Part shown: positions 12,876 through 60,067 of the stretch, in pieces
How the letters are laid out: every line of letters starts with the position of its first letter
Position numbering within the stretch: position 1 is the first letter of the stretch
Virus record (IMG/VR): IMGVR_UViG_3300028840_003168
Strand: one strand, 5' to 3'
From: a virus
DNA: 64,000 bases
Program-made: the position numbers and the translations under genes
Notes under the pieces: model-generated
Told to the model about the DNA's origin: nothing
What the model saw: only the letters and a program-made list of their open reading frames with translations
Databases searched by the model: none

Positions 12876-13322
12876 ATGGGTAAGAAGGAAATCAGGTTTG
12901 TGGTCAAAGGTAAGCCATGGGTACAGAAGAACAACCTTCAGATCCGAAAGCGAAAGTTAAAGGGAAAATGGGTACCTTTCATCGACCATTCCGACAAGCT
13001 AAAGAGTATCCGGGACCAGATAGCCATCGAGATGTACTCGCAATATCACCGACAAGGCCTAACCAAACCTATCGATTACCCAATCGAAGTGGAGTTCATA
13101 TTCTACTGCAAGCGCCAGTGGGAACCCGACCTGGACAACCTGCCGCAGATATGGCTGGACGCGGCCCAGGGGGTCAAGGCCAAGGGCGGATTGAAAATAG
13201 CAACCATTCTGACCGACGACAAGTTGGTCAGGAAAGAAACCAGCGAGAAAATCATGGAAGGAGATCCCCGTTATGACGGAGAACCAAGAACCGAAATCAC
13301 CATCCGAAGATACACCTTCTGA
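12876..13322 (+). CDS. rusA: RusA-family Holliday junction resolvase
   Basis: PDLDNL...LDAAQG...DDKLV, C-terminal PRTEITI. Confidence 0.8.
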   Translation: MGKKEIRFVVKGKPWVQKNNLQIRKRKLKGKWVPFIDHSDKLKSIRDQIAIEMYSQYHRQGLTKPIDYPIEVEFIFYCKRQWEPDLDNLPQIWLDAAQGVKAKGGLKIATILTDDKLVRKETSEKIMEGDPRYDGEPRTEITIRRYTF

Positions 13323-16800: not shown

Positions 16801-17412
16801 ATGCGAAACGTGAAACAAGACCTAGCAAACGCTTCTGGTAAAGTTGTGAGTGATATTGGTGGTGGCCGTTTAGCTGCCATGTACGCGCAGAATGCTGCTG
16901 CGCGTAGAGCGTATGACCGTGGGAACGAAGGACGCACCCATGACGACCGTGTTGTTCTGGAGAAGCTCCGTGCCATGGTAGAGCGTGGCATCGAGGAATC
17001 CGACAAGAAAGCTGTCAGCGGGAGCCTCCCGGTGAACTCGGTGTTCAATGCGCTTCAGATAGTTAATGAGAACAAAGAGATCAATCGGGACGTTGGTCTC
17101 AAGGCTTTGAAAGGTCACCTGGAAGCCAAGTGGAAACGTGACCGTACAGCCAGTATCTCTGCCGACGACTACAACCAGATTCGAGAGACGTATACGAGAA
17201 ATTATCCCCGTTCAGTGGTTGGCTCTGTGATTGATGAGATCGGACAGCAGGGTTACGTGACCCTTCCGTTATCGGATCTCATGCATATTGCCAGTAAGAT
17301 TCGTACCCAAGGGGATTTCGATAGGCTGATGAGGCGGCACGGGCTTCATACCAATCAGCTGCACCATAGAAAAGCCCGGAACTTCATCCTTTCGGTTGTC
17401 AACGGACGATAG
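16801..17412 (+). CDS. Hypothetical protein
   Basis: 203 aa ORF downstream of TGGTATATT (16759-16767). Confidence 0.7.
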   Translation: MRNVKQDLANASGKVVSDIGGGRLAAMYAQNAAARRAYDRGNEGRTHDDRVVLEKLRAMVERGIEESDKKAVSGSLPVNSVFNALQIVNENKEINRDVGLKALKGHLEAKWKRDRTASISADDYNQIRETYTRNYPRSVVGSVIDEIGQQGYVTLPLSDLMHIASKIRTQGDFDRLMRRHGLHTNQLHHRKARNFILSVVNGR

Positions 17413-17434
17413 GTCTGGAAAAAGGAAGCAAGAC

Positions 17435-22108: not shown

Positions 22109-22123
22109 ACGAGGAGAATTTCT

Positions 22124-22564
22124 ATGTCAGAAAAATATGTAGCGTATAACCTAACAAAAGGTATCGTGAGCTTCGGGCTGGCGGTAGCCGTGGCACCAGA
22201 GGAGCTTGAAGGTCTTCCCTCGCACCGCAGGCGCAGAACTCTCAAGAGCAACATCATTCAGATCGTGATCCCTTACGGAGAATCGATGGATTTGGTGGAG
22301 AAGACTGGGTTGTCGGCAGACCAGATAAAATCATCTGCCGAGCTGATAAAGCTCATTTCTCGGAATGCTGTTCGGGTTGAGGTCAGCAATGTGAAAGAAG
22401 ATCCGAAGCCCGAGGAAGCTCCCAGGCCGCAGACCAGGACTCTCGATGAGCCGGTGGATGAGAAGGTCCAGGAGGACGCCCCTGAAGAGGAGGCTGATTC
22501 TGAGGGCAAGAAGGCTTCCAAGAAGTCGGACAAGAAGTCCAAGAAGTCTAAAAAGAAGGGTTAA
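22124..22564 (+). CDS. Hypothetical protein with Lys-rich C-terminus
   Basis: SD GAGGAG; ends KKASKKSDKKSKKSKKKG. Confidence 0.7.
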   Translation: MSEKYVAYNLTKGIVSFGLAVAVAPEELEGLPSHRRRRTLKSNIIQIVIPYGESMDLVEKTGLSADQIKSSAELIKLISRNAVRVEVSNVKEDPKPEEAPRPQTRTLDEPVDEKVQEDAPEEEADSEGKKASKKSDKKSKKSKKKG

Positions 22565-22570
22565 GCCGCG

Positions 22571-23134
22571 GTGCTAGTAAAATCCCATAGCCTCAGGTTC
22601 TTGGAGGACTATGGGATAGTACGCGGTAAGACTGTTCACCTGTACGAAAATGGCGACGTGACTGTAAAGCAGTGTTCGCCGGTTTCACCCGTTCTACGGG
22701 TCAATGCTTTGTGGCTGAATAGGGACTTGAAAGTGAAGTGTGACGTGGCAGACACCCCGGCGAAAAAGAGACTCGGACTTCAGGATCATTCCGAGCTTTC
22801 AGAGAGCCGTGGTATGTACTTCCCGTATGTGAAGTACTCCAACGTGACCTTCCACCAAGGGTCCGTACCTTTCAGCTTAGACCTTCTTTTTTTAAGAGAT
22901 AATGTGGTGGTGGATGTTGAGGAGCTCACCAAGGTTGGTTCAAGCGACCGGTGGAGCTGCTCGGGGTGTGATGGGGTACTTGAAGTCAATGGTGGCTGGT
23001 GCGCCGACAAACAGGTGTGCCTGGGGGATAAGATAGCGTTGTTCGCGCTTACCCAGCGTGACCTCGATGAGCTGGAAGCTGAACGTAAGGCTGACAGTTT
23101 TTTGTCGATGGTTGCTGATAGGATAGTGGTGTAG
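22571..23134 (+). CDS. DUF192 family protein
   Basis: VADTPAKKRLGL...GMYF...F....VPFSLDLLFL...VLEVNGG. Confidence 0.8.
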   Translation: MLVKSHSLRFLEDYGIVRGKTVHLYENGDVTVKQCSPVSPVLRVNALWLNRDLKVKCDVADTPAKKRLGLQDHSELSESRGMYFPYVKYSNVTFHQGSVPFSLDLLFLRDNVVVDVEELTKVGSSDRWSCSGCDGVLEVNGGWCADKQVCLGDKIALFALTQRDLDELEAERKADSFLSMVADRIVV

Positions 23135-23156
23135 GTTCAAAAAGGAAGATATTGAG

Positions 23157-26100
23157 ATGAACATCAACGAACTGAGAAATAAGGGTCACGTCAAGAACAG
23201 CCCGATCATTAAAGGTCTCAAGCGGCAGCAGCGTCTGGTGCAGGCTAATTTGAATCGTCATGCCCAGCAGCATTCCTTGACGGATATGTTCTCTGCTTTG
23301 AAACCCGGTGCTCGGGAGGATGACCGGCAGCTTCATTCACTGGTAAAGACCGCTGTGAGTGAGACGAACGATCTGCTCAACCAGTTCTACTTTCCTGTGG
23401 CGCCTCAACTGGCCTTCACCAAGGTTAAGAATGTCAAGTACGCCAAGCACGATGACTCCGAGGTGGTGTCCGGTTGCATCATGCTCAATTGCAAGATCGC
23501 TTCGTTGAGTGGTGTGGACGTGGACGCGGACATCCCGGTTCATGTTGAGCGTGGAGAGCTTGTACTGCCTTCAGTGCTGTACCAGGATGGTCGGGAGCAT
23601 GTGATTGCTCAGTCCACTATCGACATGATTACCCAGCGTCATACCTCGTATGCGCTGCCCGAGCTGCGCCAGCAGGGGGAACCTCCCTATGACCTGGAGG
23701 AAGCCAAGATGGCCACCGAGTCCAGGAACGCCATCGGGTACCAGCCCAGGAAACCGATATACCTGGACGAGGTAACACAGAATAACGATTTCAGGGACAA
23801 ACGACCCAGGATCGCCGCCAAAGGCGCTCCACTCGGATTCAAGATAGTCAAGGAGGAGATGGACAAGGCCGAGGCGGATGGTCTCGATACCTTCCCCAGA
23901 CCTATCGACTACATCCTGGCCACCTATGTCAGGCCGATCATGGGTGAGGTGTACATGAGCGCATGGGCGCCGGCCCTCACCAACGGCGGGTACGCGATCA
24001 ACCCCTACGGAGAGAACCGCGGCAGGCCTAAGACGGGGAGTCGTCGGAAAGTTGCGGGTCTGGGAGACAAATTCATCGACAATTTCGGTGACGTTAATTG
24101 GTTGGAGCATGGCGGCAAGCTGCTTTTTGAAGGGGAGTCCGGCCCTTACGTGGTAGTGGTTGATACCTGGCGATTGGATGACGGTCAAGCCGAAGGTGAG
24201 TCCGATCCTGATATGATTTGGGATGTCTATCGTGTGGATATTGAGGACGGTTTCAAGGAAGACGAGAACGGCGATGTCATAGGATCTAATGGTTATACTG
24301 AGTGGTGGTCTAAGCGGGATGAGATGGAAGGCATCGCGTCTACGGTGGGTCAGGATGTTGAGGAGTTCATAGATGACATTACTTCGGAAGACTTGAAAGA
24401 TCGTTTTTTTGCGTATGATACGATTGCAGCTACCTGGGGATGGGAAAATCTCGAAGGAGGGCCTGCTGACCAGTACGACATAGACGACCTTGTTCGGCTC
24501 TTTGAGGGTACTGAGTTAGAGGAAACTGTAAAAGATGTTGCCGAATTTCGGGATTTGGGGCTGGCGCAGAGAGACGAAGAAGCCGAAGATGAGTTCAGTG
24601 ATTATGCCGACGAGGACGACCCGGATGAGGGTTACGATTTCAAGGAAGCCCGTCGCCGCCGAGCTGGAGAACCTTTTGGCACAGACGTAGATTTCTTTGA
24701 ACAGTGGTTTCACGGTGCGGGTTTCTATAGCTTTGGAGACATGATAGAGGGTTACTTCGATTTGAATGACGATGACCTAGTCACTGTTGCTGCTGCGACT
24801 GACGGTGGCAGCATGTCTCCCCCTTATGCCCTTTTGATAGAGCAAGGCGGCAACCCTGATGTGATGATGGACGCTGTTGTAGAGATGCTTGAAGAGAATT
24901 TGCGGCATTTCCGAAGTGATGACATCGATAAGGCTTATCAAGAAGAATTGAAAGAGCGCGGCATTAGGGACTTCGATGACTATGCTGATGACGATGACAT
25001 GGATGAGGAGCGGTGGGACATCCAGTCTGAGATAGACCAACAGTATGCGGGTGCCGAAGGTTTAGAGCTTTTCAAAATCCCACCTCAAGATCTGTTGCGT
25101 ATTATCAAAGGTCATCGGAACTCCGAAGAGTTGCTGGAGCGTATCGGGGTTGAGGGGCTGGACTATGAAAGCGCCGAAGAAGACTTCAGTGAACGAGAAG
25201 CTCGTCGGTATGAAGCGGGATATGGTTCTGAAACTGGTGATTGGGGTGAGCCTCACAAGTTGCATGGTGTAACCTATCTTGAACTCCCAGACGGACGCTG
25301 GGAGGTTCCTGGCAACCAGGGCATGCCTGCTGAATTTTTTGACAGCGAGAGTGACGCTCGGGACTACATTGCCTCGTACAAGGACAATGGCCGAGAAGCC
25401 CGTCGCCGTGCCCAGGTAGAGGTAGACGCCGAAGAAGCCGAGATGATCATCATGAACGATGAGGGCATGTACAACGAGGCCATGTTCATCGTTCGGCAAT
25501 GGAACGGCACCAACATAAAAGACATCACCGCAGACTTCATGGAGTACTTTGGAGATCTCAGCGAGACCATGGATGTGGGTGACTGGGAGGATGTTGCCCG
25601 AGAGATTATTGAGGGGATGGAAGATGACGAAGAACATCCTCCAGGGATGGAACCTGATTCCACCTGGGAGAGCAAGTGGGAGTTGATGCTCAAGGAGGGT
25701 GTGAGTGGTTCTGTGGATATTGAGGTAGAGTACGATTACATGGTGTTCGAGGACGGAATCACGCAGTACTATCCTGATGCGGATTTGGTTGAGAGTGGGG
25801 ACAACTATGATAACCAGATGCTCAAGGCAATAGAAGCCAAGTACCCGGATGCTTATGTGTCGGTGCAGCCTGGAGCGCGTGACGACATTACTGTGACCGT
25901 GAATGTCGATGAGCAAGGAGATGAGTCTGATCAGTTGGAAGATAAGAGACTTACCTGGATGCTGGCCAAAGAGAAAGAGATTCAGTCTGACGTTAGAGAC
26001 ATGATGGAAGAGGGTGTTGAGTCCTGGGACTGGCTTGTGGAAGCTGGTGAGGACGACAATGGCCGGGAGGCCCGTCGCCGCAAGGCCCAACAGGTTAGAC

Positions 26101-28538
26101 TGGATGCGGGTCAGTTCGGGTGGGACTATCTTTTGGTAAATGAAGAGACTGGTGAGGACATCCTTATCCAGACAGATTGGGACTATCCTGGCGTGGCTTC
26201 TTATTTGGGGTGGCAGCATATTTGTCCTGATGGGGAAGCCCATGGTGAGACTGACGGGACGGTTGACTGTCCAGTGTGTGGAGAATCCTCAAGTGACATG
26301 ATTGGGGAAGCAGGAGAGTTCCTGGACGATCACATTGGGGATACCTTTGAAGACCCGGGATATTTCAGCGAGTCCAGAGGGGCCAAACGGAGATGGTTTC
26401 GGCAAGGTCAATCAATGGAGTTAGAGGATCTCCCTGCGTGGCAGACTACACTCCCTGACGAGATCAAGCAGCTATGGTTTGATGGAAATAGAGAAGAAGC
26501 TCTTGACCAGTTGTTCCAGACCGATGGCGGCTATGCTATCTATCAGCAGATACAGGAGGACTGGGGTGATGCGGAGTTTGCGGCTGCTGTGAGTGACCGT
26601 CATTCAAAGAATATGGAAGACCTCAAGCGTAGCCGTAGTTCTGCTCGACGGAGGCGTCTTCGGCAAGGCTCCCGAAGGGCCAATGCCACCTCGTCGATCA
26701 TAAGCAAAATCGACAACGACCCGCGCTCGTACATCGGCGCGAAGAAGCTCATCGACCAGACTGACGACAAGCTGAAATTAGCCGAGAAACTCGAAGCCTA
26801 CTTCACCAAGAGGGATGGAATCTCCACGGACGGCGTGAACTGGGGCAAGGTCGTGGATGCAGTCCATGCAAAGTTCGGTGAGGAAGCCGTGAAGGACAAT
26901 GATGGGAAAGAAGCCCGTCGCAGACGTGCTTTTCACATTCCGATAGAGGAAGTGGAGTTTGATCTTGAGATTATGGAAGACGATGTTCCTGTTCGCGGGA
27001 ATGCCATAGTCTCTGGTGATGATGATCTTGATAAGGAAGTTGAGGATGAGATTCTTGAGCGTCTTGAGACCGGCGATTTGTGGGCCTGGTGTACCGTTAA
27101 GGTCACTGCCGAGTGGGAAGCTGAGGATGGCCGTATTTTTAGCGGCGAGGACTATTTGGGGGGTTGCTCTTACAGGGATGAGGAAGACTTCACGGAGCCT
27201 GGGGGCTACTACGACGATATGAAGGAGCAGGCCTATGCAGAGCTTCTTGCAGAGGCTTCAGGTGCAGATCCGCAACCGATGGACCCTCGCCAGCAGAAGC
27301 TTCCCGGAGTTGATGCCCGTCGCCAAGCCAAGAGCATAAAAGAAAAGCTGGAAGAGTTCCAAGGTGTGGAGATAATCTTCGAGGATACTGGAGATGAGGA
27401 TACCGAATATATTGTCAAAGCACTTCAGGACGCAGGGGTTGATGCCAGTCTGGGTGACTACACTGAAGTGGATGGTGATAGTCTTGCCAATAGTGTGTAC
27501 GCTGAAAACATCATCAAAGATATAGAAGCAATCGTTTTCGGTGATGATGACGAGGAAGAGGAACCTGAGCGTGGAGAGCGTTGGGAAGATCTGAGTGACG
27601 ATGAGAAACGCTGGTACCACGAGGAACAACGTATCATAGACAGAAACAGAGGTCTGGAATCTCGCCGCCATGCCCAGGATGATATGATTCCTCAAGTATG
27701 GGAGGGTTCTTTTTACGCTTTGGATTTTCCTTCCGGGACCGAGTTTATTGATGCCAGCTGGGTGGATGAGTCTCTTTCCGAATTGAAAAATGCTAATTTT
27801 GCTAAGGGAGGTGTCCCTGAAGATGTGCGGGAGGTCCAGGGCTGGGGTGCTCAGTTGGTTTCTCCTGATGGCGTTGAGTACACAGATTTAGAAGTGTTTG
27901 ACACCGAGGATGAAGCTCGGGCGTCTTTGAAGAGGGGAAGAGGGGCTCGTCGCCAGGCCCAGACCTACGAATGGACCAACGACATCACCCGGCAGGCCTA
28001 TGAGGTTCTGAACCGCGACAAGGCCACTGTAGCCGCCGTGGAGGAACTCATGGCTGCTCATGCCGAGGACGCCGACAACACCATCCTAGTAGGCAACCTG
28101 GCACCTCTCCTTGGAAGTGAGATGGATTTCACCGAGGGCAGCTCTCACGAGATTGTCTGGGAAGAGGTCATTGAGAACTTCCAAGGCGGCACCCCCGAGA
28201 CCATGTACGATGAGAGCTACCAGATGGCCGCTTCCCGGCAGGCCATGCCCATGGAAGAGGACTTGGAGATGGACGGACCCCCGATGGAACTCGAAGAGTT
28301 CATCGATGAGGAACCGGCCCCCAAAGAGCCGCGCAAGTGGCCCGGTACCAAAGCCCCCATGGAGAACGGTGATAAAGCGAAGTTCAATGGGCATGACGGT
28401 CCCATCCGCGGGAAGATTGTGGAGATCGATGAGGCGGGAGATACCCTCATCCTGGAGAGCAAGGGGATGCAGTACCGGGTAGTGGTGGATGACGTGGAGG
28501 CTCTCCCGAGTACGATGAACAAGATGTGGAAAGAGTAG
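23157..28538 (+). CDS. Acidic modular polyprotein 2 (putative processed virion internal/ejection protein)
   Basis: About 12 linkers (SRRKVAG, EARRRRAG, EARRYEAG, EARRRAQ, EARRRKAQ, KRRWFRQGQ, SARRRRLRQGSRRANA, EARRRRAF, DARRQAK, ESRRHAQ, GARRQAQ, ASRQAM) between D/E-rich modules. Confidence 0.8.
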   Translation: MNINELRNKGHVKNSPIIKGLKRQQRLVQANLNRHAQQHSLTDMFSALKPGAREDDRQLHSLVKTAVSETNDLLNQFYFPVAPQLAFTKVKNVKYAKHDDSEVVSGCIMLNCKIASLSGVDVDADIPVHVERGELVLPSVLYQDGREHVIAQSTIDMITQRHTSYALPELRQQGEPPYDLEEAKMATESRNAIGYQPRKPIYLDEVTQNNDFRDKRPRIAAKGAPLGFKIVKEEMDKAEADGLDTFPRPIDYILATYVRPIMGEVYMSAWAPALTNGGYAINPYGENRGRPKTGSRRKVAGLGDKFIDNFGDVNWLEHGGKLLFEGESGPYVVVVDTWRLDDGQAEGESDPDMIWDVYRVDIEDGFKEDENGDVIGSNGYTEWWSKRDEMEGIASTVGQDVEEFIDDITSEDLKDRFFAYDTIAATWGWENLEGGPADQYDIDDLVRLFEGTELEETVKDVAEFRDLGLAQRDEEAEDEFSDYADEDDPDEGYDFKEARRRRAGEPFGTDVDFFEQWFHGAGFYSFGDMIEGYFDLNDDDLVTVAAATDGGSMSPPYALLIEQGGNPDVMMDAVVEMLEENLRHFRSDDIDKAYQEELKERGIRDFDDYADDDDMDEERWDIQSEIDQQYAGAEGLELFKIPPQDLLRIIKGHRNSEELLERIGVEGLDYESAEEDFSEREARRYEAGYGSETGDWGEPHKLHGVTYLELPDGRWEVPGNQGMPAEFFDSESDARDYIASYKDNGREARRRAQVEVDAEEAEMIIMNDEGMYNEAMFIVRQWNGTNIKDITADFMEYFGDLSETMDVGDWEDVAREIIEGMEDDEEHPPGMEPDSTWESKWELMLKEGVSGSVDIEVEYDYMVFEDGITQYYPDADLVESGDNYDNQMLKAIEAKYPDAYVSVQPGARDDITVTVNVDEQGDESDQLEDKRLTWMLAKEKEIQSDVRDMMEEGVESWDWLVEAGEDDNGREARRRKAQQVRLDAGQFGWDYLLVNEETGEDILIQTDWDYPGVASYLGWQHICPDGEAHGETDGTVDCPVCGESSSDMIGEAGEFLDDHIGDTFEDPGYFSESRGAKRRWFRQGQSMELEDLPAWQTTLPDEIKQLWFDGNREEALDQLFQTDGGYAIYQQIQEDWGDAEFAAAVSDRHSKNMEDLKRSRSSARRRRLRQGSRRANATSSIISKIDNDPRSYIGAKKLIDQTDDKLKLAEKLEAYFTKRDGISTDGVNWGKVVDAVHAKFGEEAVKDNDGKEARRRRAFHIPIEEVEFDLEIMEDDVPVRGNAIVSGDDDLDKEVEDEILERLETGDLWAWCTVKVTAEWEAEDGRIFSGEDYLGGCSYRDEEDFTEPGGYYDDMKEQAYAELLAEASGADPQPMDPRQQKLPGVDARRQAKSIKEKLEEFQGVEIIFEDTGDEDTEYIVKALQDAGVDASLGDYTEVDGDSLANSVYAENIIKDIEAIVFGDDDEEEEPERGERWEDLSDDEKRWYHEEQRIIDRNRGLESRRHAQDDMIPQVWEGSFYALDFPSGTEFIDASWVDESLSELKNANFAKGGVPEDVREVQGWGAQLVSPDGVEYTDLEVFDTEDEARASLKRGRGARRQAQTYEWTNDITRQAYEVLNRDKATVAAVEELMAAHAEDADNTILVGNLAPLLGSEMDFTEGSSHEIVWEEVIENFQGGTPETMYDESYQMAASRQAMPMEEDLEMDGPPMELEEFIDEEPAPKEPRKWPGTKAPMENGDKAKFNGHDGPIRGKIVEIDEAGDTLILESKGMQYRVVVDDVEALPSTMNKMWKE

Positions 28539-28541
28539 ACC

Positions 28542-30278
28542 ATGGACGAAGGATACACATTCACGCTCCAGGGTTACGACGTAGTTGTGAACGAGACCGA
28601 GAATTCCGAGGTTTTCCATGTTCAGATTCATGAAGGTGGGGCGCCTGTCTATGAGACCGATGTCCCCATCACTTTGGAGGACGAGGAAATTATCCTTGAT
28701 GAGGTAATCGATCACGCGGCCAAGGCTGCGATTGATATGTACGAGTCGGAGAAAGGTACCTTGGGACAAGGTGCTGAACCGCTAGAAATAGAGGCCAAAA
28801 TGAAAAGAGGACAAGCGATAGCTTCCCCAGGATGCTACTGGATGGAGTCGTGCAACTACACCGAATGGCTCATGCAGCTCAAAGGCACCCCCTACGAGCA
28901 GCAGGCCATCGTTCTGCTTGAGGAACTTATCAACCTCCAGGCCCCAGGCGCGACCAACACCGAGCTGGATGCTTTGTATAAGCAGAAAAGCCAGGTGGAG
29001 CATGAGCTGGATCGGCTGAACCTGGAGAGACTCAAGACTGCCGATCCTCCCAAACAGATCGTTGTCATTGAGGCCAACCGTACCCGGCGTGTGAGCTTCT
29101 CCGGGTTAGACTGGGTCGAAGGTTTCCTGGATGCGTTCAAAGACCACAGGCTGGAGCCTCAGGCCATTCTCAAGGTCAAGGAACTGATCGACCTGGAAGC
29201 GGCCATCGACGTGGCCAGCGCCACCGAGAGTGGTACCTGGGACCAGCAGGACGAGGTTCGCCGGCAGATGGACGCACTGCTCATCGAGAAGACCAAGTCC
29301 GAGGTGGACCAGAAGCTCCCCCAGAGCGGCATCGAGGTGGCCCCTGAGATGGCCAACGACATCGCTGACCTGATGGAAGGCGTCTCGATGGACGCTCCCC
29401 TGGAGCCGATGGTGGCTCGTCGCCGGCAGGTTGCTTACGAGGAGTACTACCCCGGTGAACACGGGGAAGGTGCGACAAGCAACTCGATTCTGGATGCCAT
29501 GGCCCGTGCCGTGTATGTGACCAGCTGGTCTAGTGAGTGGGAGTACCTGTGGGAAGACTATGAGGACGAGGTTATCGAAGAAGAAGCTGAAGAACTCGGA
29601 ATCGAAGTTCCCAATTTCATGGGTGCTGAACTCATGTCGATTGCACCGCCCACTGAGAAAGAGGCTCATGACCTTGCCAAGAAAGTGTATGACGAAATCG
29701 AGCGCGATAACAATGTGAACCTCGAAGACTTCATCCCGCCAGGAGAGGATGAGGACTTTGATCAGTTTGAGTTTGGTCACTATCTCATGATGGAGGTGCT
29801 GGGTTCTGGTGTTGCCTGGAGCGATGACCACGAAGACCACGGGTTGAAGCTCCCGTGGGAGGAGGGGGTCCAAGTTGAGGGCCTGACTCCTTTGGTGAAT
29901 GTCTTGTACGAGAAATATGGGGAGGGTCGCGAGGCTTCCAGAAAAGGCTGCCGCAGACCTGTTAGAAAGAGAGCCCAGGATGACAAGAAAGACCCTTTCG
30001 AGGTTGAGGAATTTGGTACGGAACTGGGGAAGGGTCACGGGGACCTGGACCCCGCGGAGGTTCCCGAAGCGACCCGAGTTCCTTTCGGCCCAGGCAACTA
30101 CATAAAGCTCAAGAACGAGGTCAAGGTTCCGTTGTGGGGAGGAGCTTCTCGTACCATACCCAAAGGTACGAAAGGGTTTGTGGACTCTTTGTATGACGGC
30201 CACGGCGACCGTTTCTATATCAGAACTGAAGAAGGCGCTCTGTTCAGCACCGACCGAGATAATTTGGCAAAAGCTTAG
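28542..30278 (+). CDS. Acidic modular polyprotein 3
   Basis: Linkers EAKMKRGQ, EANRTRRVSF, VARRRQVAY, EASRKGCRRPVRKRAQ; internally duplicated helical module. Confidence 0.75.
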   Translation: MDEGYTFTLQGYDVVVNETENSEVFHVQIHEGGAPVYETDVPITLEDEEIILDEVIDHAAKAAIDMYESEKGTLGQGAEPLEIEAKMKRGQAIASPGCYWMESCNYTEWLMQLKGTPYEQQAIVLLEELINLQAPGATNTELDALYKQKSQVEHELDRLNLERLKTADPPKQIVVIEANRTRRVSFSGLDWVEGFLDAFKDHRLEPQAILKVKELIDLEAAIDVASATESGTWDQQDEVRRQMDALLIEKTKSEVDQKLPQSGIEVAPEMANDIADLMEGVSMDAPLEPMVARRRQVAYEEYYPGEHGEGATSNSILDAMARAVYVTSWSSEWEYLWEDYEDEVIEEEAEELGIEVPNFMGAELMSIAPPTEKEAHDLAKKVYDEIERDNNVNLEDFIPPGEDEDFDQFEFGHYLMMEVLGSGVAWSDDHEDHGLKLPWEEGVQVEGLTPLVNVLYEKYGEGREASRKGCRRPVRKRAQDDKKDPFEVEEFGTELGKGHGDLDPAEVPEATRVPFGPGNYIKLKNEVKVPLWGGASRTIPKGTKGFVDSLYDGHGDRFYIRTEEGALFSTDRDNLAKA

Positions 30279-37596: not shown

Positions 37597-37866
37597 ATGA
37601 GGAATCGCAGAAACCCACGCTGCTCAAGCCCCGGAGAGAATCGGGCCGGTTCTAAGTTTAAGGCTAAGTTTAATTACAGGAGATCCCAGGACGTGGACGG
37701 GTTCAGGTTCGGTGAAGATGGCTACATGGAAGTAATGGATGCCATCGTGGAGATGGTTGAGAACGGATACGGGGTCGTGGACATCATGCTCAACATCGGT
37801 GAGAGGTTTCCGCGGGAAATGGCAACAAAGGTGCTTGAGGAAGCACGAGCGCAGGGAATCTTATGA
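37597..37866 (+). CDS. Basic-leader acidic protein
   Basis: Basic N-terminus ending YRRSQ, then an acidic domain. Confidence 0.65.
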   Translation: MRNRRNPRCSSPGENRAGSKFKAKFNYRRSQDVDGFRFGEDGYMEVMDAIVEMVENGYGVVDIMLNIGERFPREMATKVLEEARAQGIL

Positions 37867-38909: not shown

Positions 38910-39304
38910 TGAAACTTAAAGGATTATCTAACAAAGGTGTGAAGCGGGTAGCTTCTGTCATTAAAGGATATGGCCAGCGCGATCCTCAGAATGCTGTGGG
39001 CATAAGCGCATTTGAGGTCTTCGGAGACTCCGTTGATGCCTACCAAGAGTTTGCCTGGAACTATTTTGATAGAGGCCCGGAGGGCGGTATTGAGCTTCCG
39101 CAGACTTCTCTCGATAAAGAGATGATCATGTATGCCATGCAGGAGCATGTTGACGAGACCACCCAGCCGGGAGGTCCTGGGAGAGCTTTGGGGACAGGTG
39201 AGTACCTTGAGCTGGAGGACGCTGGGTACTACCTTGAAACTGTCATTGAGGAGCTTGAAATACTCCCCATGACCGACGAGGAGCTTTACGGGAGCCCGTA
39301 TTGA
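38909..39304 (+). CDS. Leader-class A cargo protein 4
   Basis: MKLKGLSNKGVKRVASVIKGYGQ. Confidence 0.8.
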   Translation: MKLKGLSNKGVKRVASVIKGYGQRDPQNAVGISAFEVFGDSVDAYQEFAWNYFDRGPEGGIELPQTSLDKEMIMYAMQEHVDETTQPGGPGRALGTGEYLELEDAGYYLETVIEELEILPMTDEELYGSPY

Positions 39305-39537
39305 TGAGCCAGAAGGATAACATCATCGCTACCACTGAAGGGATACTGGACGCCTTGAGGGCACTCACAGGGCGTCTCTATGATGCTTTGGAGAGGTACC
39401 GGGAGGATGATGATGTGGAATCTTTGGGTGAGGAGATAGAGGACCAGGTGGACTATATGATACCGGATGTGGCCACGGTCATGAAAGACCTTGCTTTGGA
39501 CATCAGTCTTGAGGCTGTTGAAACTTTGGAGGATTAG
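39304..39537 (+). CDS. Acidic small protein lacking the leader peptide
   Basis: In the array, coupled by a TGATG overlap. Confidence 0.65.
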   Translation: MSQKDNIIATTEGILDALRALTGRLYDALERYREDDDVESLGEEIEDQVDYMIPDVATVMKDLALDISLEAVETLED

Positions 39538-39541
39538 GGAA

Positions 39542-39856
39542 ATGCGTTTAAAAGGATTATCAGAAAAGGGTGTCCAGCAGGTTGCCAGGACGATTAAGGG
39601 ACAGGATACCTATGAGTGGCAGTACGGTACTGAGATAGACCCCCTGGCCACCGCAGTACACAACGATTTGAATGATGCCGAGGCTTATGCCAAGGAGCTT
39701 GTCTCGGATGTTGACGCTATTCTGTATTCAGCTACCTCACCCCATCAGGAAGTGAAGGACTGGGTACATGAAGTTCGTTGGGCCGCTGAAAAAGCACAGG
39801 CTCTCGTTAACCTTTTGGAGATGGTTGCTGATACATTAGAGGAGGGTAGTCAATGA
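39542..39856 (+). CDS. Leader-class A cargo protein 5
   Basis: MRLKGLSEKGVQQVARTIKGQ. Confidence 0.8.
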   Translation: MRLKGLSEKGVQQVARTIKGQDTYEWQYGTEIDPLATAVHNDLNDAEAYAKELVSDVDAILYSATSPHQEVKDWVHEVRWAAEKAQALVNLLEMVADTLEEGSQ

Positions 39857-40404: not shown

Positions 40405-40686
40405 ATGACAATTTTTCAAGAAGGCGGCATCAGGGTTTACGATGAGAACACCAAGGAAACCTGGGACGGTATCAGGGAGCCTTCAGAGGCATTCTTAGAG
40501 AGGCTCTCAGATGTGTCTGTGAACGCCGAGATGGCCTATGCCGAGGTTATCCTGGAGTTCTTCAAGACCCTGGAACCCGAGGACCGTGATGAGGCCCTGG
40601 AATGGTTTGAGAACCATTACGAGAACGATACGGCCATGCTGTCCGAGATAGTAAACTGGATTCGCCGTGGCCTGAGGGACTGGTAA
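40405..40686 (+). CDS. Acidic hypothetical protein (no leader peptide)
   Basis: SD AAGGAGG. Confidence 0.7.
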   Translation: MTIFQEGGIRVYDENTKETWDGIREPSEAFLERLSDVSVNAEMAYAEVILEFFKTLEPEDRDEALEWFENHYENDTAMLSEIVNWIRRGLRDW

Positions 40687-40697
40687 AGGAGGTTCAA

Positions 40698-40994
40698 ATG
40701 AGACACGAGGACTTCATAAAAGGTGTGAACAAGAACGCAGCTAGGGCAGTTCGTAGACGTGGTGATGCCTTGAACACTTCATACGAGGCTCAGGTGGATG
40801 TACTGAAGGGCTTTCTTGCGGAGAGGCTAGATGGTATTCAACGTGAGTTGAGTGAAGGTCCCGCAGCTGAACGTCTACCGGAAGTTTTGACAGACATGTC
40901 GGAGTTAGCAGAGTCCCTGAAGTCTCAACTGAGCGTCTTGGATATGGAATACGAAACCCATCGAGAGATGTCCGATGCCGGGTTCACAGGATAG
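40698..40994 (+). CDS. Leader-class B cargo protein 1
   Basis: MRHEDFIKGVNKNAARAVRRRG. Confidence 0.8.
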   Translation: MRHEDFIKGVNKNAARAVRRRGDALNTSYEAQVDVLKGFLAERLDGIQRELSEGPAAERLPEVLTDMSELAESLKSQLSVLDMEYETHREMSDAGFTG

Positions 40995-41003
40995 GAGTAA
41001 CCA

Positions 41004-41354
41004 ATGAGACACGAGGATTTCATAAAAGGTGTGAACAAGAACGCTGCCAAGGCCATCAGGGCTGATGTGGTTCAGCCGAAGGTTACCCAGGCCCGTATCA
41101 TCTATGACGACAATTCAGACAACCCTGGGTGGTTCGTCCGGTACACTTTGTCGGATGGTCAGATACTTGATACGTCTTACGGGATGCCTGATGATCCTGA
41201 GTACCCCGAGAACGATTTGTACGATGCCGCCGACGATGCTTTATTCTATGAGGGCTATTCCCATGATGACGTAATCTATGAGATTGTAGGCGGCAATCCT
41301 GGTGAAGGTGATCCCGACCCAGAGGGTGTGTTCCCGGACGACATCTTAGACTGA
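41004..41354 (+). CDS. Leader-class B cargo protein 2
   Basis: MRHEDFIKGVNKNAAKAIRA; very acidic payload. Confidence 0.8.
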   Translation: MRHEDFIKGVNKNAAKAIRADVVQPKVTQARIIYDDNSDNPGWFVRYTLSDGQILDTSYGMPDDPEYPENDLYDAADDALFYEGYSHDDVIYEIVGGNPGEGDPDPEGVFPDDILD

Positions 41355-41373
41355 CAGAGACAAGGAGAGACCG

Positions 41374-41649
41374 ATGAGACATGAAGACTTCATCAAAGGT
41401 GTGAAGAAGAACGCTGTGAAGGCCAAGGTTGTGGTGGCCCAGGATGCAGAGAGTGGGCCTATCTACGACCACGCTTACACGGTGGCCTTCTCTGTCAAGA
41501 CCCCACACGAAGCCCAGGACGTTACGGCTGAGGAGCTCCTGGATGGTTTGGCTGACCGGCTCAAGGATCTGGAAGCAACTGGCGAGGTTTTCGAGGCTGT
41601 CGGGATGCCCTACGACACTGCAAAAATCGAGGATGGCTTCATCGAGTGA
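41374..41649 (+). CDS. Leader-class B cargo protein 3
   Basis: MRHEDFIKGVKKNAVKAKVVVAQ. Confidence 0.8.
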   Translation: MRHEDFIKGVKKNAVKAKVVVAQDAESGPIYDHAYTVAFSVKTPHEAQDVTAEELLDGLADRLKDLEATGEVFEAVGMPYDTAKIEDGFIE

Positions 41650-42688: not shown

Positions 42689-42756
42689 GGGGTACCTCCT
42701 TCCTATGGTAGGTATGACGGGGTGCAGGTACTTTTTCTGACAAATATGTGAATGGC

Positions 42757-42777
42757 TTCAAACTTTTTTGGTATCTT
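42757..42777 (+). promoter_or_regulatory. Phage promoter motif copy 2
   Basis: TTCAAACTTTTTTGGTATCTT, then SD GAGGAGG. Confidence 0.8.
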
Positions 42778-42795
42778 CCCTATGAGGAGGTACCG

Positions 42796-43509
42796 ATGAG
42801 CGAATCAAAACCAGGCAAACTGAAACCTTACAATAAGTGTACGAAGAGTGAACTGATCGATCATCTGCGGATACGGGATTTGCAGTTGGGGGAGGAGAAG
42901 GCCAACGTCAAGTCCTACACGATAGCCTTGGACAAAGCCCAGGAGGAGCTGGAGGATGCCATAGTCGCCAGGGAGAACCTGCTGATAGAGAAGACCCAGA
43001 TGGGTGTTGACCAGGCTGCGGAACTGCACAAGGTCAGTACAGACTGTGGGGAGGCCGCGGGGTTTGTCAATAATGTGCTGGACAGGTTGATTGGTCTGGT
43101 GGCCGAGGAGAAACTGAACAGAGGGGTGTTCGAGGAAGTTTCCATGAAGCTCCACATAGCCATCTCTCTGATGCACAGGGACTCTACTTCAACGTATGTC
43201 AAACGGCTTATAGATACCATGGAGAAGGCCAAAGCCGCGGCTGAAGGTACTCCAATGAAAAAGAGCATATCTGTGGGAGAGCCCAAGCCCATCATCCTGC
43301 ACCTGGAGAAGGTGGGTAAGAAGAAGATTGATGTTATCAGGCTCATTCGGAATTACATGGGACTAGGGTTGCAGGAAGCAAAGGTTCTGGCAGAGGATTG
43401 TACCAACTTCGGGAAGTCCATTGAGGTGTACTCACACGTTGACCTTCGGGAGATAGTCAAGGTAGCCACGGAGTTTCAGGAAGTGGGAGCGAAGGTTTAC
43501 TACAAGTAG
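42796..43509 (+). CDS. Coiled-coil protein fused to a ribosomal protein bL12 C-terminal-like domain
   Basis: LEKVGKKKIDVIRLIRNYMGLGLQEAKVLAE...FQEVGAKV vs bL12 [31 protein letters not shown]...LEEAGAEV. Confidence 0.75.
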   Translation: MSESKPGKLKPYNKCTKSELIDHLRIRDLQLGEEKANVKSYTIALDKAQEELEDAIVARENLLIEKTQMGVDQAAELHKVSTDCGEAAGFVNNVLDRLIGLVAEEKLNRGVFEEVSMKLHIAISLMHRDSTSTYVKRLIDTMEKAKAAAEGTPMKKSISVGEPKPIILHLEKVGKKKIDVIRLIRNYMGLGLQEAKVLAEDCTNFGKSIEVYSHVDLREIVKVATEFQEVGAKVYYK

Positions 43510-50773: not shown

Positions 50774-52495
50774 ATGCGTAGGTTAGTGAATATCCCAGAG
50801 TTTGAAGTTCAAATCAGGTTAAGAAACAACCTTCTAGTGCAGCGAAGGGAGCAGCTGGACCTGACCCAGGCAGGGTTCGCCCGCATCCTGGGTATGAGTC
50901 AGAGCTCCTACAATCAGTACGAATGTATGCGTACCTCCCCGATGAATATGAAAACCGGCAGGTGGAAAGAGATACCTTTAAAGATAGCTGAATTCTGGGG
51001 CGAGAGTCCAGAGAACCTGTGGCCTGATGTAGTTAGGGCGATAAGGAAGGCTATGGTTAGGTTCAGGCTGGACGGAGAAGCTGCGCTGATGCTGGTTGGT
51101 CAGGCAACTAGGGAAATGTCTTCGTCACCTGAAGCCTTGTTTGAGTTCAAGGAGCGTGATCATGTTTTGGGTGCCATGGTCAAAACAAGTCTGACCCCTA
51201 GAGAGTCTGTGATCCTGTCTCGGAAGTTCGGGCTGGGTGACACAAAAGAACACACCTATCAGGAATTGGCTGCCTACCTTGAAGTGTATCATAAAGAAAG
51301 ACCCAGACAGATTGCCGAGAAGTCGTTGAGAAAGCTGAGGCATCGTGAGTGCTCAGAACCTTTGAAAGAATATTTGGATATGGACCGAACGGATTTGAAC
51401 CTTTTTGGTATATTACCTGATGTAGGTGACGATGCAGGAACCTACGATGAAAGGAGGTTGAGTATCCCAACTGTAAGTAAGTATTCAGACAGAACGACAA
51501 AGTGTCGCTGGTGCAGCAAACCTTTTTTGAAGAGAAGCTGGCTGGCTAGACATGAAAGAGGCTGTCTGGAACGGAACAAGACTCGTAAAAAAGCGAAACC
51601 AAAAGAAAGGAAACGCAAAATGAGTAGTAACAAAACGAATGAAGAGAAAGTCTGGAATAATCCAGGGCAGGCGGGTGAGTTTATGTGGGTTCCGAAGGGA
51701 GACATAGAGATTGACCACACGTACCAGCGGGATGAGCTGTCTGGGCATGTGAACAAGATGGCTAAAAACTTTACCTGGCGGTGGTTCGGAACCCTCTCGG
51801 TAGAGCGGAGGTCAAGTGGGAGGCTGTTCGGTATCGACGGCCAGCAGCGGCTCCTGGCCGCGCTCAAGCGCCCGGACATCACGGAAGTTCCCTGCATGGT
51901 TCATGTTTCAAAGGGGGTCAAAGGGGAAGCCGCAGACTATAGTGGGATAAACAATAACAGAAGGAACCTCCAGGCTTATGACAAATTCAAGTCTGAGCTC
52001 ACCCAGAAGATCCCTCTGGCGGTGAGGATCAACGAGATGGTTCAGAAGAATGGCTATCACATCAAGTACAAGACCAGTGAACCTTATAGTTTCATGGCTA
52101 TTGGTACGCTGTGGAGTCTGTCAAAGCGGGACGAAGCCACAACTGCTGAGGTGTTCCGTTACCTGGCCGCTATTGCCATTGACGGAGAACGCATCCACCA
52201 GCGGGTTTTCCACGGCATGTACCTATTCGTGCGCTATCAGCGAAGAGGCGGTTATGATTTCCTGGCCGATAAAGAGAGGATGCAGGACTTGAAGATGCTC
52301 GGACTCAAGAACATCCCGAAGGCAGCCAAACGGGTATCCCAGGACGAGAGCCTGGACTTTGAGGGTCCATCTGCCTACGCCTACGCCATTTTCCAGGAAC
52401 TGAATCGGGATCTCCCGAAAAATCAGAAGATAAAGTGGTACGGGCCAAAGAACTCTAAGGAGTCCAAGGCAGAAGAAGCTAAAGAAGCTGCGTAA
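50774..52495 (+). CDS. Multidomain regulator: XRE HTH + sigma70 region 4 + C2HC zinc finger + ParB/DGQHR-like domain
   Basis: RREQLDLTQAGFARILGMSQSSYNQYE; LTPRESVILSRKFGL...TYQELA...ERPRQIAEKSLRKLRH; CRWCSKPFLKRSWLARHERGC; IDHTYQR...IDGQQRL. Confidence 0.8.
   Translation: MRRLVNIPEFEVQIRLRNNLLVQRREQLDLTQAGFARILGMSQSSYNQYECMRTSPMNMKTGRWKEIPLKIAEFWGESPENLWPDVVRAIRKAMVRFRLDGEAALMLVGQATREMSSSPEALFEFKERDHVLGAMVKTSLTPRESVILSRKFGLGDTKEHTYQELAAYLEVYHKERPRQIAEKSLRKLRHRECSEPLKEYLDMDRTDLNLFGILPDVGDDAGTYDERRLSIPTVSKYSDRTTKCRWCSKPFLKRSWLARHERGCLERNKTRKKAKPKERKRKMSSNKTNEEKVWNNPGQAGEFMWVPKGDIEIDHTYQRDELSGHVNKMAKNFTWRWFGTLSVERRSSGRLFGIDGQQRLLAALKRPDITEVPCMVHVSKGVKGEAADYSGINNNRRNLQAYDKFKSELTQKIPLAVRINEMVQKNGYHIKYKTSEPYSFMAIGTLWSLSKRDEATTAEVFRYLAAIAIDGERIHQRVFHGMYLFVRYQRRGGYDFLADKERMQDLKMLGLKNIPKAAKRVSQDESLDFEGPSAYAYAIFQELNRDLPKNQKIKWYGPKNSKESKAEEAKEAA
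51395..51418 (+). promoter_or_regulatory. Degenerate phage promoter motif copy 5, inside the CDS
   Basis: TTGAACCTTTTTGGTATATTACCT. Confidence 0.55.
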
Positions 52496-57579: not shown

Positions 57580-57780
57580 ATGGGTGAAAATAAATATTAC
57601 GTAATAACGCAATGTGATACACCAATAGAAATAGTTATAGGTAGCATACAAGAGGCAGACGAAAGGCTTTTGTCTTGGAGGGAAGGGGACACGTCAGATC
57701 ATTATGAGTGTTTAGAGGTGGATGTATTCCGGCCACCAAAAGAAAGAAAGGCGGGGCGATGGCAATTAGTAGCTACATAA
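57580..57780 (+). CDS. Small hypothetical protein
   Basis: Starts at a GCGGGGCGATGG junction. Confidence 0.55.
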   Translation: MGENKYYVITQCDTPIEIVIGSIQEADERLLSWREGDTSDHYECLEVDVFRPPKERKAGRWQLVAT

Positions 57781-58004
57781 CATGTCGTGTCTGTAAGGAA
57801 GAGGTCAGGGTGATGCACTCTGTGCGTGGCCCTACTCCTACTATCTGTAGAGATTGCAAGGAAAAAGAGTCTGACAAAGAGAGGACAAAATATCTTGAAG
57901 GGCTTAAAAAGTTATCGTTGGAAGATAGAATAGCGCGAATAGAGGAAGCTTTATATGACCAGCCTCCAGTTCGTCGTAGTGTGCGAGACATCATAATAGG
58001 ATAA
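57759..58004 (+). CDS. Zinc-ribbon hypothetical protein
   Basis: Starts at GGCGGGGCGATGG; CRVC...CRDC. Confidence 0.6.
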   Translation: MAISSYITCRVCKEEVRVMHSVRGPTPTICRDCKEKESDKERTKYLEGLKKLSLEDRIARIEEALYDQPPVRRSVRDIIIG

Positions 58005-58051
58005 AGGCGGGGCGATGGGTAAACCACGAACAGAACCAATACTAGGCACTC
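58003..58051 (+). repeat. 49-bp direct repeat, copy 2
   Basis: Identical to 56730-56778; opens a 36-codon ORF at 58015-58125. Confidence 0.9.
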
Positions 58052-58137
58052 TAGCGGATATGGGGATTGTATGTCTGCGTAAAATGTGGCGACAGGCAGC
58101 CGAACACCGTGGCGACTATGTATGAGAAGGAGGAACC

Positions 58138-58314
58138 ATGAAAACGCAATGGCAGTTGCTCTTGGTAGCTTTAGGTTTGTTTGTCGGACTCTTCATGGAA
58201 GAGACTGTGGCTTTGGCTACTACTCTTTGGCTGGTATTGTTCGCTGCTGTTATGATTGTGCGTGACGCTGTGCGCCACTACCGGTCCATAAAATCATATA
58301 GGGAGAAACAATGA
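58138..58314 (+). CDS. Small two-TM membrane protein; not in the ORF track
   Basis: SD AAGGAGG; MKTQWQLLLVALGLFVGLF...LWLVLFAAVMIVRD. Confidence 0.6.
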   Translation: MKTQWQLLLVALGLFVGLFMEETVALATTLWLVLFAAVMIVRDAVRHYRSIKSYREKQ

Positions 58315-58499
58315 CCCAAACAAAAGACGAAGGCTACCTAATCCGGTGCACCCGTGAGAGCGACGGCGAAGTAACCTACTTGCGCCTATCCGCTGGTCGC
58401 CACTATCTGTGTGGGATGTTCGGTCCGTGTTTCCGCACTCCCTACGGTGATTTATACCCCGTCCTAATCATCCCTGACGAAAGCCGAGACGATGGATAA
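58311..58499 (+). CDS. Small hypothetical protein
   Basis: Ends YPVLIIPDES, similar to the end of the next gene. Confidence 0.55.
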   Translation: MTQTKDEGYLIRCTRESDGEVTYLRLSAGRHYLCGMFGPCFRTPYGDLYPVLIIPDESRDDG

Positions 58500-58875
58500 T
58501 AATTTAGACATGATGAAACGTGAACCACTGTTAAGGGAAATCGAAAAACTCCGCGCCGAGCTGGTCGAGGTGAAGGCGGAACGGGATGCGCTGCGGGAAA
58601 CAAACCGAGCCTTAGAACTAAACGCCACCGAACGGCTGGATAAAAAAGCGGCTAGAATCGATAATCTGGAAAATGAACTTGCGCGGGTTGTAGACAAACG
58701 GGATGCGCTGCAAGCACGGATTGATGGGGCGGTTAGGGGGTTTGGGCTATTTTCTCGCGGTATGCCAAAGGATTCGCTAGTGGAAGCACGACCGCGAGAT
58801 CACTTTTCATTTGATATAAACTACTTCAGGGTTTTCCCCGTCCTAATCCTAAAAGACGAAAGCAAGACCGAATGA
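58492..58875 (+). CDS. Coiled-coil hypothetical protein
   Basis: LRAELVEVKAERDAL; ends FPVLILKDES. Confidence 0.6.
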   Translation: MDNNLDMMKREPLLREIEKLRAELVEVKAERDALRETNRALELNATERLDKKAARIDNLENELARVVDKRDALQARIDGAVRGFGLFSRGMPKDSLVEARPRDHFSFDINYFRVFPVLILKDESKTE

Positions 58876-59117
58876 CAAGTCATGTTCAATGGCTGGATGC
58901 GGAACCCGAAAGAACGAAACAACAGGAGAAGGAGCGTGTCAAACTACACCTGGCAGTGGACAGGGCTGTGGACTTGATTCATGAGAGCATAGGCAGCTGT
59001 CCTGCAAACGTCTTCAACTGGGACAACAACTGTGAAGAGAAGTGTGGAGCCAGGTCAGAACGCAGGTTCGCTTGGAAAGAATGTTGGAGAGATTATTTAC
59101 TAAGGGAGGAGTCATGA
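58872..59117 (+). CDS. Small Cys-containing protein
   Basis: ATGA overlap. Confidence 0.55.
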   Translation: MTSHVQWLDAEPERTKQQEKERVKLHLAVDRAVDLIHESIGSCPANVFNWDNNCEEKCGARSERRFAWKECWRDYLLREES

Positions 59118-59383
59118 CCACAGCCGCCTGCCCGATATGTCACCACCCACAGAATGAGTGCATGTGTACCACTAAGGTCGGTGTTATCGATGTTGCACCC
59201 ATGCCGCAATGGACCTGTGAGATCTGTGGCAGAATGCAATTAGGGGTCACGCCCAGCGAGTGTACGTCACCACTATGTTCCAGGATCAAGTTGTTGGAAG
59301 CTAAGATAACCTACTTGGAGGGAGGACTTCACCTGATCAGAGGTGAGATGTTGCTGAAGAGAGAATCCGATGACCAAAGCTAA
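59114..59383 (+). CDS. Small Cys-rich protein
   Basis: SD GGAGGAG. Confidence 0.55.
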   Translation: MTTAACPICHHPQNECMCTTKVGVIDVAPMPQWTCEICGRMQLGVTPSECTSPLCSRIKLLEAKITYLEGGLHLIRGEMLLKRESDDQS

Positions 59384-59648
59384 ACTCATAAGTCCTGGCG
59401 ACGAGTACAACGAGCATACCTGCATCACAGCTGCCGAACTTCGTGAGATGGGGTTCAAAATTCCAGAGCACATTCCCAACTGTGCATGGGTGCCGCGGGA
59501 TAGCTTGTTACCTGTCGGTGACTTGAGTATAGAAGCTGACAGTCATGATAACAGCAGGTTCCACATGTCACTTTTCACCAGGTTCACCAAACCTTTTAAG
59601 TGGATTGGTGCTGATGTGGTGATCCCAATGGAGAAAACTGATGAGTGA
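59370..59648 (+). CDS. Hypothetical protein
   Basis: Overlap-coupled. Confidence 0.55.
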   Translation: MTKAKLISPGDEYNEHTCITAAELREMGFKIPEHIPNCAWVPRDSLLPVGDLSIEADSHDNSRFHMSLFTRFTKPFKWIGADVVIPMEKTDE

Positions 59649-59856
59649 AAGGTCCAAGCTCATAGACACCGTTCAGCTAGGTGAGCATGCCTTGAATATC
59701 ATCACCACAAAAGTTCTGAACCCAGACGAGGCAATCCTAGTCTCTTTCCCGTCCAGGTACCCTGGCGAATCCTTGGACGACTATCTGGAACGTGTGGCGA
59801 GAAGCAAACGTTGGGCAAAGCTGGTGAACCTGGGAAAGAAGAAAACTGATGAGTGA
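59641..59856 (+). CDS. Hypothetical protein
   Basis: Overlap-coupled. Confidence 0.55.
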   Translation: MSERSKLIDTVQLGEHALNIITTKVLNPDEAILVSFPSRYPGESLDDYLERVARSKRWAKLVNLGKKKTDE

Positions 59857-60067
59857 CGCTTTCAAATGGTTTTGTGAAGAAAGGTGTGAACATCGAACCG
59901 TGGCCCAGGCTTTAGGGGAACCCCAGGCCAGACATCCTTACTGCAAACTGAGAAGGGATACTCCTCCATTATGTGGCGACATCGGTTGTTCCATCTGGAG
60001 GCAAAATAGAATCCATATCGAGATTGCCTACGAGAAGAGAGGGAAACATGAACCTCAGGAAACTTGA
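59849..60067 (+). CDS. Small Cys-rich protein
   Basis: Overlap-coupled. Confidence 0.5.
   Translation: MSDAFKWFCEERCEHRTVAQALGEPQARHPYCKLRRDTPPLCGDIGCSIWRQNRIHIEIAYEKRGKHEPQET

Follow-up and report, generated by a model that had tools for sequence, protein, structure and literature searches.

A second class of N-terminal leader on unrelated small acidic proteins of an uncultured phage

The leader gene array and its phage

Three genes of an uncultured phage of ~158 kb, located at 40698-40994 (B1), 41004-41354 (B2) and 41374-41649 (B3) on the + strand of the window, the 64,000-nucleotide stretch of DNA that was analysed, start with the same peptide, here called the class B leader. The B1 protein has 98 amino acids, with the leader in codons 1-22 (40698-40763), an Arg-rich joint R-R-R-G before D at the leader end, and a helical acidic payload after it. 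In B2 (116 aa), the leader and a linker take up codons 1-25 (41004-41078), after which the payload forms a small beta-beta-beta-alpha-beta domain (residues ~27-97) and ends in an acidic, disordered tail. In B3 (91 aa), the leader covers codons 1-23 (41374-41442), ends in V-A-Q and is followed by an acidic payload. Each of the three genes is preceded by an AGGAG-type ribosome-binding site at 6-9 nt. An earlier note on this DNA had described the N-terminus MRHEDFIKGV[NK]KNA as common to the open reading frames at 40698, 41004 and 41374, which is confirmed here, and in all three it runs into a basic, Ala-rich stretch. Also as described there, the first 41 nt of B1 and B2 differ by a single mismatch. 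The DNA conservation among the three genes starts with the ATG and tapers off ~50 nt further on, and upstream of the ribosome-binding site no conservation is observed among class B genes.

The three payloads were said to be acidic and unrelated to each other, and both properties hold: after residue ~20 their pI is 4.05-4.2, and payload-against-payload comparison gave no pairwise similarity (best E-value between class B payloads 1.3, in a tiny database). The proposed points at which leader changes to payload have been shifted in two cases, as the boundary of B3 lies more likely after V-A-Q than before the Q, and the B2 payload starts nearer to residue 27, as judged from leaderless homologues. 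A halophile-type, uniformly acidic proteome was considered as the cause of the acidity and rejected, since the median pI of the open reading frames is 5.45, against 4.05-4.3 for the payloads.

Directly upstream of the class B run, six genes with a class A leader are found between 37863 and 40329 (+ strand; starts at 37863, 38138, 38529, 38909, 39542 and 39853), with the pattern M-[KR]-L-K-G-[LI]. Two small acidic genes on the + strand are leaderless, one within the array (39304-39537, pI 4.05) and one between the class A and class B runs (40405-40686, pI 4.2).

The window is the replication and accessory part of the phage, and all of its genes are on the + strand. It encodes a family A DNA polymerase, a clamp loader, SbcCD-like nucleases, an SNF2 helicase and a topoisomerase-like protein, and the module that holds B1, B2 and B3 looks like a replication or early one. 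ENA contig k141_2638559 (157,903 bp) represents the same phage. Nucleotide searches of the INPHARED phage collection gave no match for either the array or the first 24 kb, and the phage is without nucleotide relatives among deposited phages. Searches for relatives by means of the topoisomerase-like protein and the SNF2 helicase returned unrelated elements or nothing, and promoter and terminator scans gave background levels only. Three further proteins of the window, all encoded on the + strand, can be mentioned. The C-terminus of a 253-aa protein (42748-43509) matches the ribosomal L7/L12 C-terminal domain (PF00542, E 4.9e-9), which is unusual for a phage. A 438-aa protein (13273-14589) has a trigger factor C-terminal (chaperone arm) domain (PF05698, E 4.3e-9) and could be a phage chaperone. 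In a 573-aa protein (50774-52495), an HTH_3 domain is fused to sigma-70 region 4 and a ParB-like domain.

Recurrence and distribution of the leaders

The N-termini of 344 candidate starts, from 108 kb of the ~158-kb phage, were clustered without prior assumptions, and only two recurrent families were obtained, class A with 12 genes and class B with five. Pairs of N-termini scoring at least 30 were observed 74 times, against 0.35 in composition-preserving shuffles, and the pairs among B1, B2 and B3 score 66-76, against a maximum of 41 in 200 shuffles; chance is ruled out as the source of the class B recurrence. In total, ~20 genes of the phage, encoding unrelated acidic proteins, are tagged. 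The two additional class B genes were found by walking along the phage contig beyond the window. B4 (L005:19671-20045) lies ~8.7 kb past the window end and has the cap M-K-H-S-D-F-I-K, and B5 (L010:20176-20496) is located three genes downstream of the capsid gene and has a hybrid leader. The class B cap is found only at true N-termini and does not occur inside any reading frame. A 142-aa protein that is encoded ~7.8 kb beyond the end of the window (L005:18802-19230) has a different N-terminus of 24 residues that ends in R-R-L-K-G-Q before the body of the protein and may be a third leader type.

In a search of 5.8 billion proteins with a leader profile, the sole match outside the phage was a protein of 107 aa on a 4.3-kb JGI contig (L003). 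This contig is a relative of the same array, with an A2 orthologue that is 81.5% identical in DNA, and it carries two class B genes; between conserved flanks, its gene content differs from that of the window. When IMG/VR and JGI metagenome contigs were scanned for the class B cap with degenerate DNA and peptide patterns, no relative could be confirmed, and word-index protein searches with B5 and A5 returned only self matches.

A complete relative of 170 kb (G001), with a capsid protein that is 72% identical, has eight leader genes, all with class-A-like cores and variable caps and none of class B, which makes the class B cap lineage-specific. In a more distant relative, no recurrent leader is present. 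The turnover of the cargo is extreme, as only one of the 22 array-gene proteins queried has a payload homolog in G001, namely the A6 payload. The cargo repertoire is therefore hypervariable between these related phages while the tag is retained, both in L003 and in G001. Three repeat-protein paralogues of G001 (57652-59972; L017) start with M-K-F-S-E-F-C-K-K-V, which is identical to the B4/B5 cap at 6 of 10 positions; this cap-like start is without a basic tail and may be a coincidence.

Selection on the peptide

Distant copies of the class B leader differ in their cap codons almost solely by synonymous changes. When B1 is compared with the first class B gene of L003, codons 2-10 comprise four identical, five synonymous and zero non-synonymous codons, and the same counts are obtained for B3. 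Codons 11-19 vary freely and yet remain basic and Ala-rich in the encoded peptide, and an Rfam search of the leader region gave no family match. These three observations make a signal at the RNA or DNA level unlikely, and, as judged from the codon comparisons, selection on the leader is shown to act at the protein level. Class A leaders have only 61% DNA identity and are also conserved as protein. The near-identity of the B1 and B2 leaders points to a recent copy or conversion event between these two genes.

A separable leader and its payloads

The class B leader has been shown to be a modular add-on tag that is separable from its payload. When B2 and its L003 orthologue were used as queries in an exhaustive HMMER search, eight remote homologs of the B2 payload were obtained, seven of 71-77 aa and one of 96 aa, which carry no leader and of which the start aligns to B2 residues 27-29, indicating that the B2 domain exists alone without the leader. 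One of these leaderless homologs is located in a 51-kb contig of a mobile element or phage (L025), a contig that also encodes (L025:790-3427) proteins with faint or weak matches to the type IV CRISPR-associated Csf1 and Csf3 and a radical SAM enzyme. A 1393-aa protein with six HMMER matches over B2 residues 9-39 was rejected as a compositional look-alike with HEAT-type repeats (V-R-x-x-A-A-x-A-L-R). For B4, matches of the payload to the Pfam and PHROG profiles DUF7249 and phrog_871 begin at residues 14-20, and for the class A gene at 39853 (A6) the payload match to phrog_1915 begins at residue 26, so that these profiles set in immediately behind the leader.

In the AlphaFold2 model of B2, leader residues 1-21 have a pLDDT below 50, with a short helix at 10-17, and payload residues 22-97 (pLDDT 74-88) form the confident small beta-beta-beta-alpha-beta domain, on which the leader is not packed. 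Foldseek searches of this model against the PDB and BFVD gave no significant match. The single-sequence model of B3 is poor (mean pLDDT 56). The leaders are basic, with a net charge of +2 to +6. Their amphipathicity, which the earlier note had proposed to check by helical wheel, is only moderate, and their mean hydrophobicity is low.

Relation between the two leader classes

Class A and class B leaders were compared by a column-score permutation test, as their profiles are too short for hhalign. Two nearly equal alignments of class B to class A were obtained, one placing I-K-G-V on the first L-K-G-L and the other placing K-G-V on the second K-G-[VI] (scores 15.4 against 14.2; joint permutation p ~0.02). 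The claim that the class B core is shared with class A is borne out in terms of kinship, but the specific alignment of I-K-G-V on the first L-K-G-L is no better than that on the second K-G-[VI]. The leader of B5 is a hybrid in which a class B cap is followed by V-A-K-T-L-K-A-Q, the class A tail, and it speaks for the second alignment, in which class B is longer by one residue.

In addition, a natural swap of leaders has been found. The L003 gene at 1949-2227 has a class B leader, with DNA ~84% identical to the class B leaders of the window, and a payload homologous to that of the class A gene at 39542-39856 of the window (43% identity over 53 aa, E 3e-13). This swap shows the exchangeability of the tags only. 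As regards the alternatives that had been offered for class B, a second address label or a variant of the same label, the hybrid leader and the swap between A and B on one payload make the variant the better option. Set against the class-A-like leaders of G001, the class B cap is a lineage-specific substitute for the first seven or eight residues, placed on a core that is conserved.

The first gene of L003 (95-610) has a class A leader, a zinc-ribbon-like first module, a second, internal A-K-T-I-K-A-Q joint and then an acidic module, like a giant modular protein in miniature with two beads.

The head module and the [AG]-Q joint

The genes of the head module follow the T4 order, with the portal first, then two small proteins, the head maturation protease (L010:13394-14299; phrog_18299), a scaffold-like protein (L010:14304-16244; 646 aa, highly charged), an Ig-like protein and finally the capsid protein. 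Right after the capsid gene come B5 and two class A genes. The capsid protein itself is extremely basic over its first ~100 residues (L010:17055-17370), which are rich in R, K and P and have a net charge of +28, and the scaffold-like protein contains a run of ~20 Asp/Glu, which suggests a charge-driven assembly and perhaps an attraction of acidic cargo.

An [AG]-Q dipeptide is present at residues 15-26 in 10 of 19 leaders, where ~1.3 would be expected from composition, and in seven of them it is at exactly residues 20-21. The residue after it varies (E, D, G, N), and some leaders have A-Q-E. Arg-rich [AG]-Q joints also occur 13 times inside three giant modular proteins. The N-terminus of the head protease is a basic stretch ending in T-A-Q, with S-Q and A-E in two relatives, and one class A leader has G-E in place of [AG]-Q, suggesting a protease that cuts after Gln or Glu. 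B1 and B2 are without [AG]-Q at the leader end, where B1 has its R-R-R-G before D and B2 only V-V-Q before P. The R-R-R-G-D of B1 resembles the R-[KR]-R-G-Q-D joints of the giant proteins (17396-30278), minus the Gln. A candidate boundary in the capsid protein, S-Q before G, is not conserved (K-E and K-S in relatives), and the [AG]-Q motif is therefore not tied to a proven protease substrate. The head protease has no match in Pfam and no sequence match among solved structures, and an hhalign comparison with T4 gp21, from a two-sequence alignment, was uninformative (probability 0.1%). A complex prediction of the scaffold-like protein with B2 scored 0.00, which is counted neither for nor against binding.

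Proposed role of the leader and alternative explanations

These observations are best explained by a single family of N-terminal tags, ~20 residues long, of which class B is a lineage-specific variant. The tag consists of an invariant cap, M-[RK]-H-[ES]-D-F-I-K-G-V, then a basic, moderately amphipathic, Ala-rich helix that is common to class A (K-G-V-x-x-x-A followed by basic and hydrophobic residues), and in many cases an [AG]-Q at its end, after which comes an acidic residue. With regard to its role, there is an about even chance that the tag is a head-targeting propeptide similar to the capsid targeting sequence (CTS) of T4 and would be removed at [AG]-Q; both the targeting and the cleavage are steps that we infer. 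The tag would dock the protein to the core of the assembling prohead and would later be released at the [AG]-Q joint by the head maturation protease. What remained in the head would be the acidic payload, which would then pass into the host together with the DNA and probably serve there as accessory or counter-defence cargo. Head targeting is favored by the separable nature of the tag, the selection on its peptide, its interchange with class A, the T4 order of the head module, the presence of leader genes by the capsid gene, the joint motif, the T-A-Q at the protease N-terminus, the fast turnover of the cargo and the T4 precedent. Against it are B1 and B2 without [AG]-Q, the location of the class B run in a replication or early-looking module, the unconserved capsid-protein site, the failure to place the head protease in a family, the acidic payloads, which are unlike the basic internal proteins of T4, and the large size of the putative cargo set (~20 small proteins and the modular giants).

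It is also possible, although rather unlikely, that the leader is a docking peptide for a non-capsid partner, which would gather accessory proteins at one site in the cell and for which cleavage would not be required. A hub protein of the host, the membrane or the nucleoid could be the partner, or else a chaperone encoded by the phage; the trigger-factor-like protein at 13273-14589 is conceivable as a partner of the leaders, and the presence of a trigger factor C-terminal domain protein in the phage fits this possibility. The conserved basic, moderately amphipathic helix (net charge +2 to +6) would suit such a peptide, but its mean hydrophobicity is low for a membrane helix. The early-looking surroundings of the class B genes and the absence of an [AG]-Q joint in two of the three also agree with docking, whereas other leader genes are inside the head and neck module, and the recurrence of the leader tail as a joint in the giant proteins, together with [AG]-Q at the protease N-terminus, points to processing. 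No result points to any particular partner.

Less probable still is that the two caps are two addresses on a common processing tail, or that the whole system is a cytoplasmic, polyprotein-style processing pathway that depends on a Gln-specific protease of the phage and is unconnected to the capsid. The two addresses could, for example, be distinct docking sites or loading times at the prohead, or one cap could direct proteins to the capsid and the other to a different destination in the infected cell. Two addresses would amount to a small protein-sorting code of the phage, in which caps and payloads are shuffled by recombination.

A pro-peptide that masks or solubilizes the acidic payload, for example by charge neutralization, until a phage protease removes it would set the timing rather than the address, and is improbable. 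Leader and payload are oppositely charged in every case, and the joint motif is common to the polyprotein-looking modular giants, but a leader of +2 to +6 cannot balance the 17-34 acidic residues of a payload, and the invariant cap, with its acidic E-D and its F-I, is not explained by charge masking. Moreover, the leader is not packed on the payload in the AlphaFold2 model, and leaderless homologs exist that are presumably functional. The least probable explanation, and a very doubtful one, is that the shared 5' ends are recombination or cassette scars or optimized translation-initiation regions that were spread by gene conversion between tandem accessory genes and have no peptide function; the 41 nt shared by B1 and B2 with one mismatch, which exceed what the protein needs and point to recent conversion or duplication, and the hypervariable arrays with breakpoints near the leader ends would agree with it, but the cap codons of distant copies are saturated with synonymous changes at invariant amino acids, class A leaders are conserved as protein at 61% DNA identity, no conservation is present upstream of the ribosome-binding site, and the cap has been retained in another phage and in genes separated by tens of kilobases.

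Significance

If the tag does load the head, the phage would have a natural modular system of cargo delivery, with a tag of ~20 residues, two interchangeable caps and about twenty acidic proteins with a fast turnover. Such a cargo set would be much larger than the set of T4 internal proteins and of independent origin. It would provide a defined peptide for the packaging of foreign proteins into a non-T4 capsid and a catalogue of candidate injected host-takeover or counter-defence proteins, as well as a worked example of the reassignment of phage cargo by leader swapping. Owing to the swap between A and B and to the hybrid leader, cap and tail can each be put to a direct test as functional units in their own right.

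Comparison with known systems

The CTS of phage T4 was reportedly described by Mullaney and Black in 1996 on the internal proteins IPI, IPII, IPIII and Alt. The T4 N-termini, read directly, are MKTYQEFIAE in IPII and IPIII and MKTFKEFTS in IPI, proteins with a pI of 8.9-9.5, and ipI, ipII and ipIII sit among non-structural genes, outside the head module. The internal proteins share only this short CTS of 10-19 residues, which binds the prohead core, is removed by gp21 and can take foreign proteins into the head (PMC9026906, PMC3012670). As in T4, the phage described here has a short N-terminal peptide on otherwise unrelated small proteins (five class B proteins here and two in L003), tagged genes that are scattered outside the head module, a cargo repertoire that varies between relatives while the tag is conserved, a tag that is proposed to end at a protease site, and a similar order of head genes. 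The likeness of M-R-H-E-D-F-I to the T4 sequence that the earlier note had seen did not hold, as it amounts to three identities (M, F and I) in eight positions with one gap and is not significant, and no significant sequence similarity is present. Also unlike T4, where the tag has 10 residues, the tag here has ~20 residues and is basic, and the payloads have a pI of ~4.1, against 8.9-9.5. The putative P1 residue is Gln, sometimes Glu, and not the Glu after L/I-x of T4. Furthermore, two cap classes and a hybrid are found here, on ~20 tagged genes that are known from sequence alone.

In phage SPN3US, the first 15 residues of gp53 and gp54 are identical, at an overall identity of 34%, and the prohead protease cuts propeptides at A-x-E, in some cases at A-Q-E (PMC5694885). 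The ejection proteins of SPN3US, phiKZ and 201phi2-1 are similar to the leader proteins in that diverged proteins keep an identical N-terminus, the motif for propeptide removal is short and starts with a small residue, although cleavage is only proposed for the leaders, and a large internal cargo is present, which is putative here (PMC5694885, PMC7411985). They differ in that their propeptides are mostly 100-130 residues long and are found on paralogues rather than on unrelated payloads. Their cleavage occurs after Glu, in an S/A/G-x-E motif that is cut by a protease of the gp175/gp245/gp21 family, whereas here [AG]-Q is conserved and the next residue is E, D, G or N, and no protease homology was detected here.

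In encapsulins, cargo tags are usually found at the C-terminus; they stay uncleaved, and their binding partner is the shell protein itself. Like the leaders, these cargo-loading peptides are short terminal tags, and they send diverse cargo into a protein shell with the HK97 fold; unlike them, the tag here is N-terminal and probably processed. In its anatomy, the class B system, which fails the sequence test against T4, resembles the T4 and SPN3US systems.
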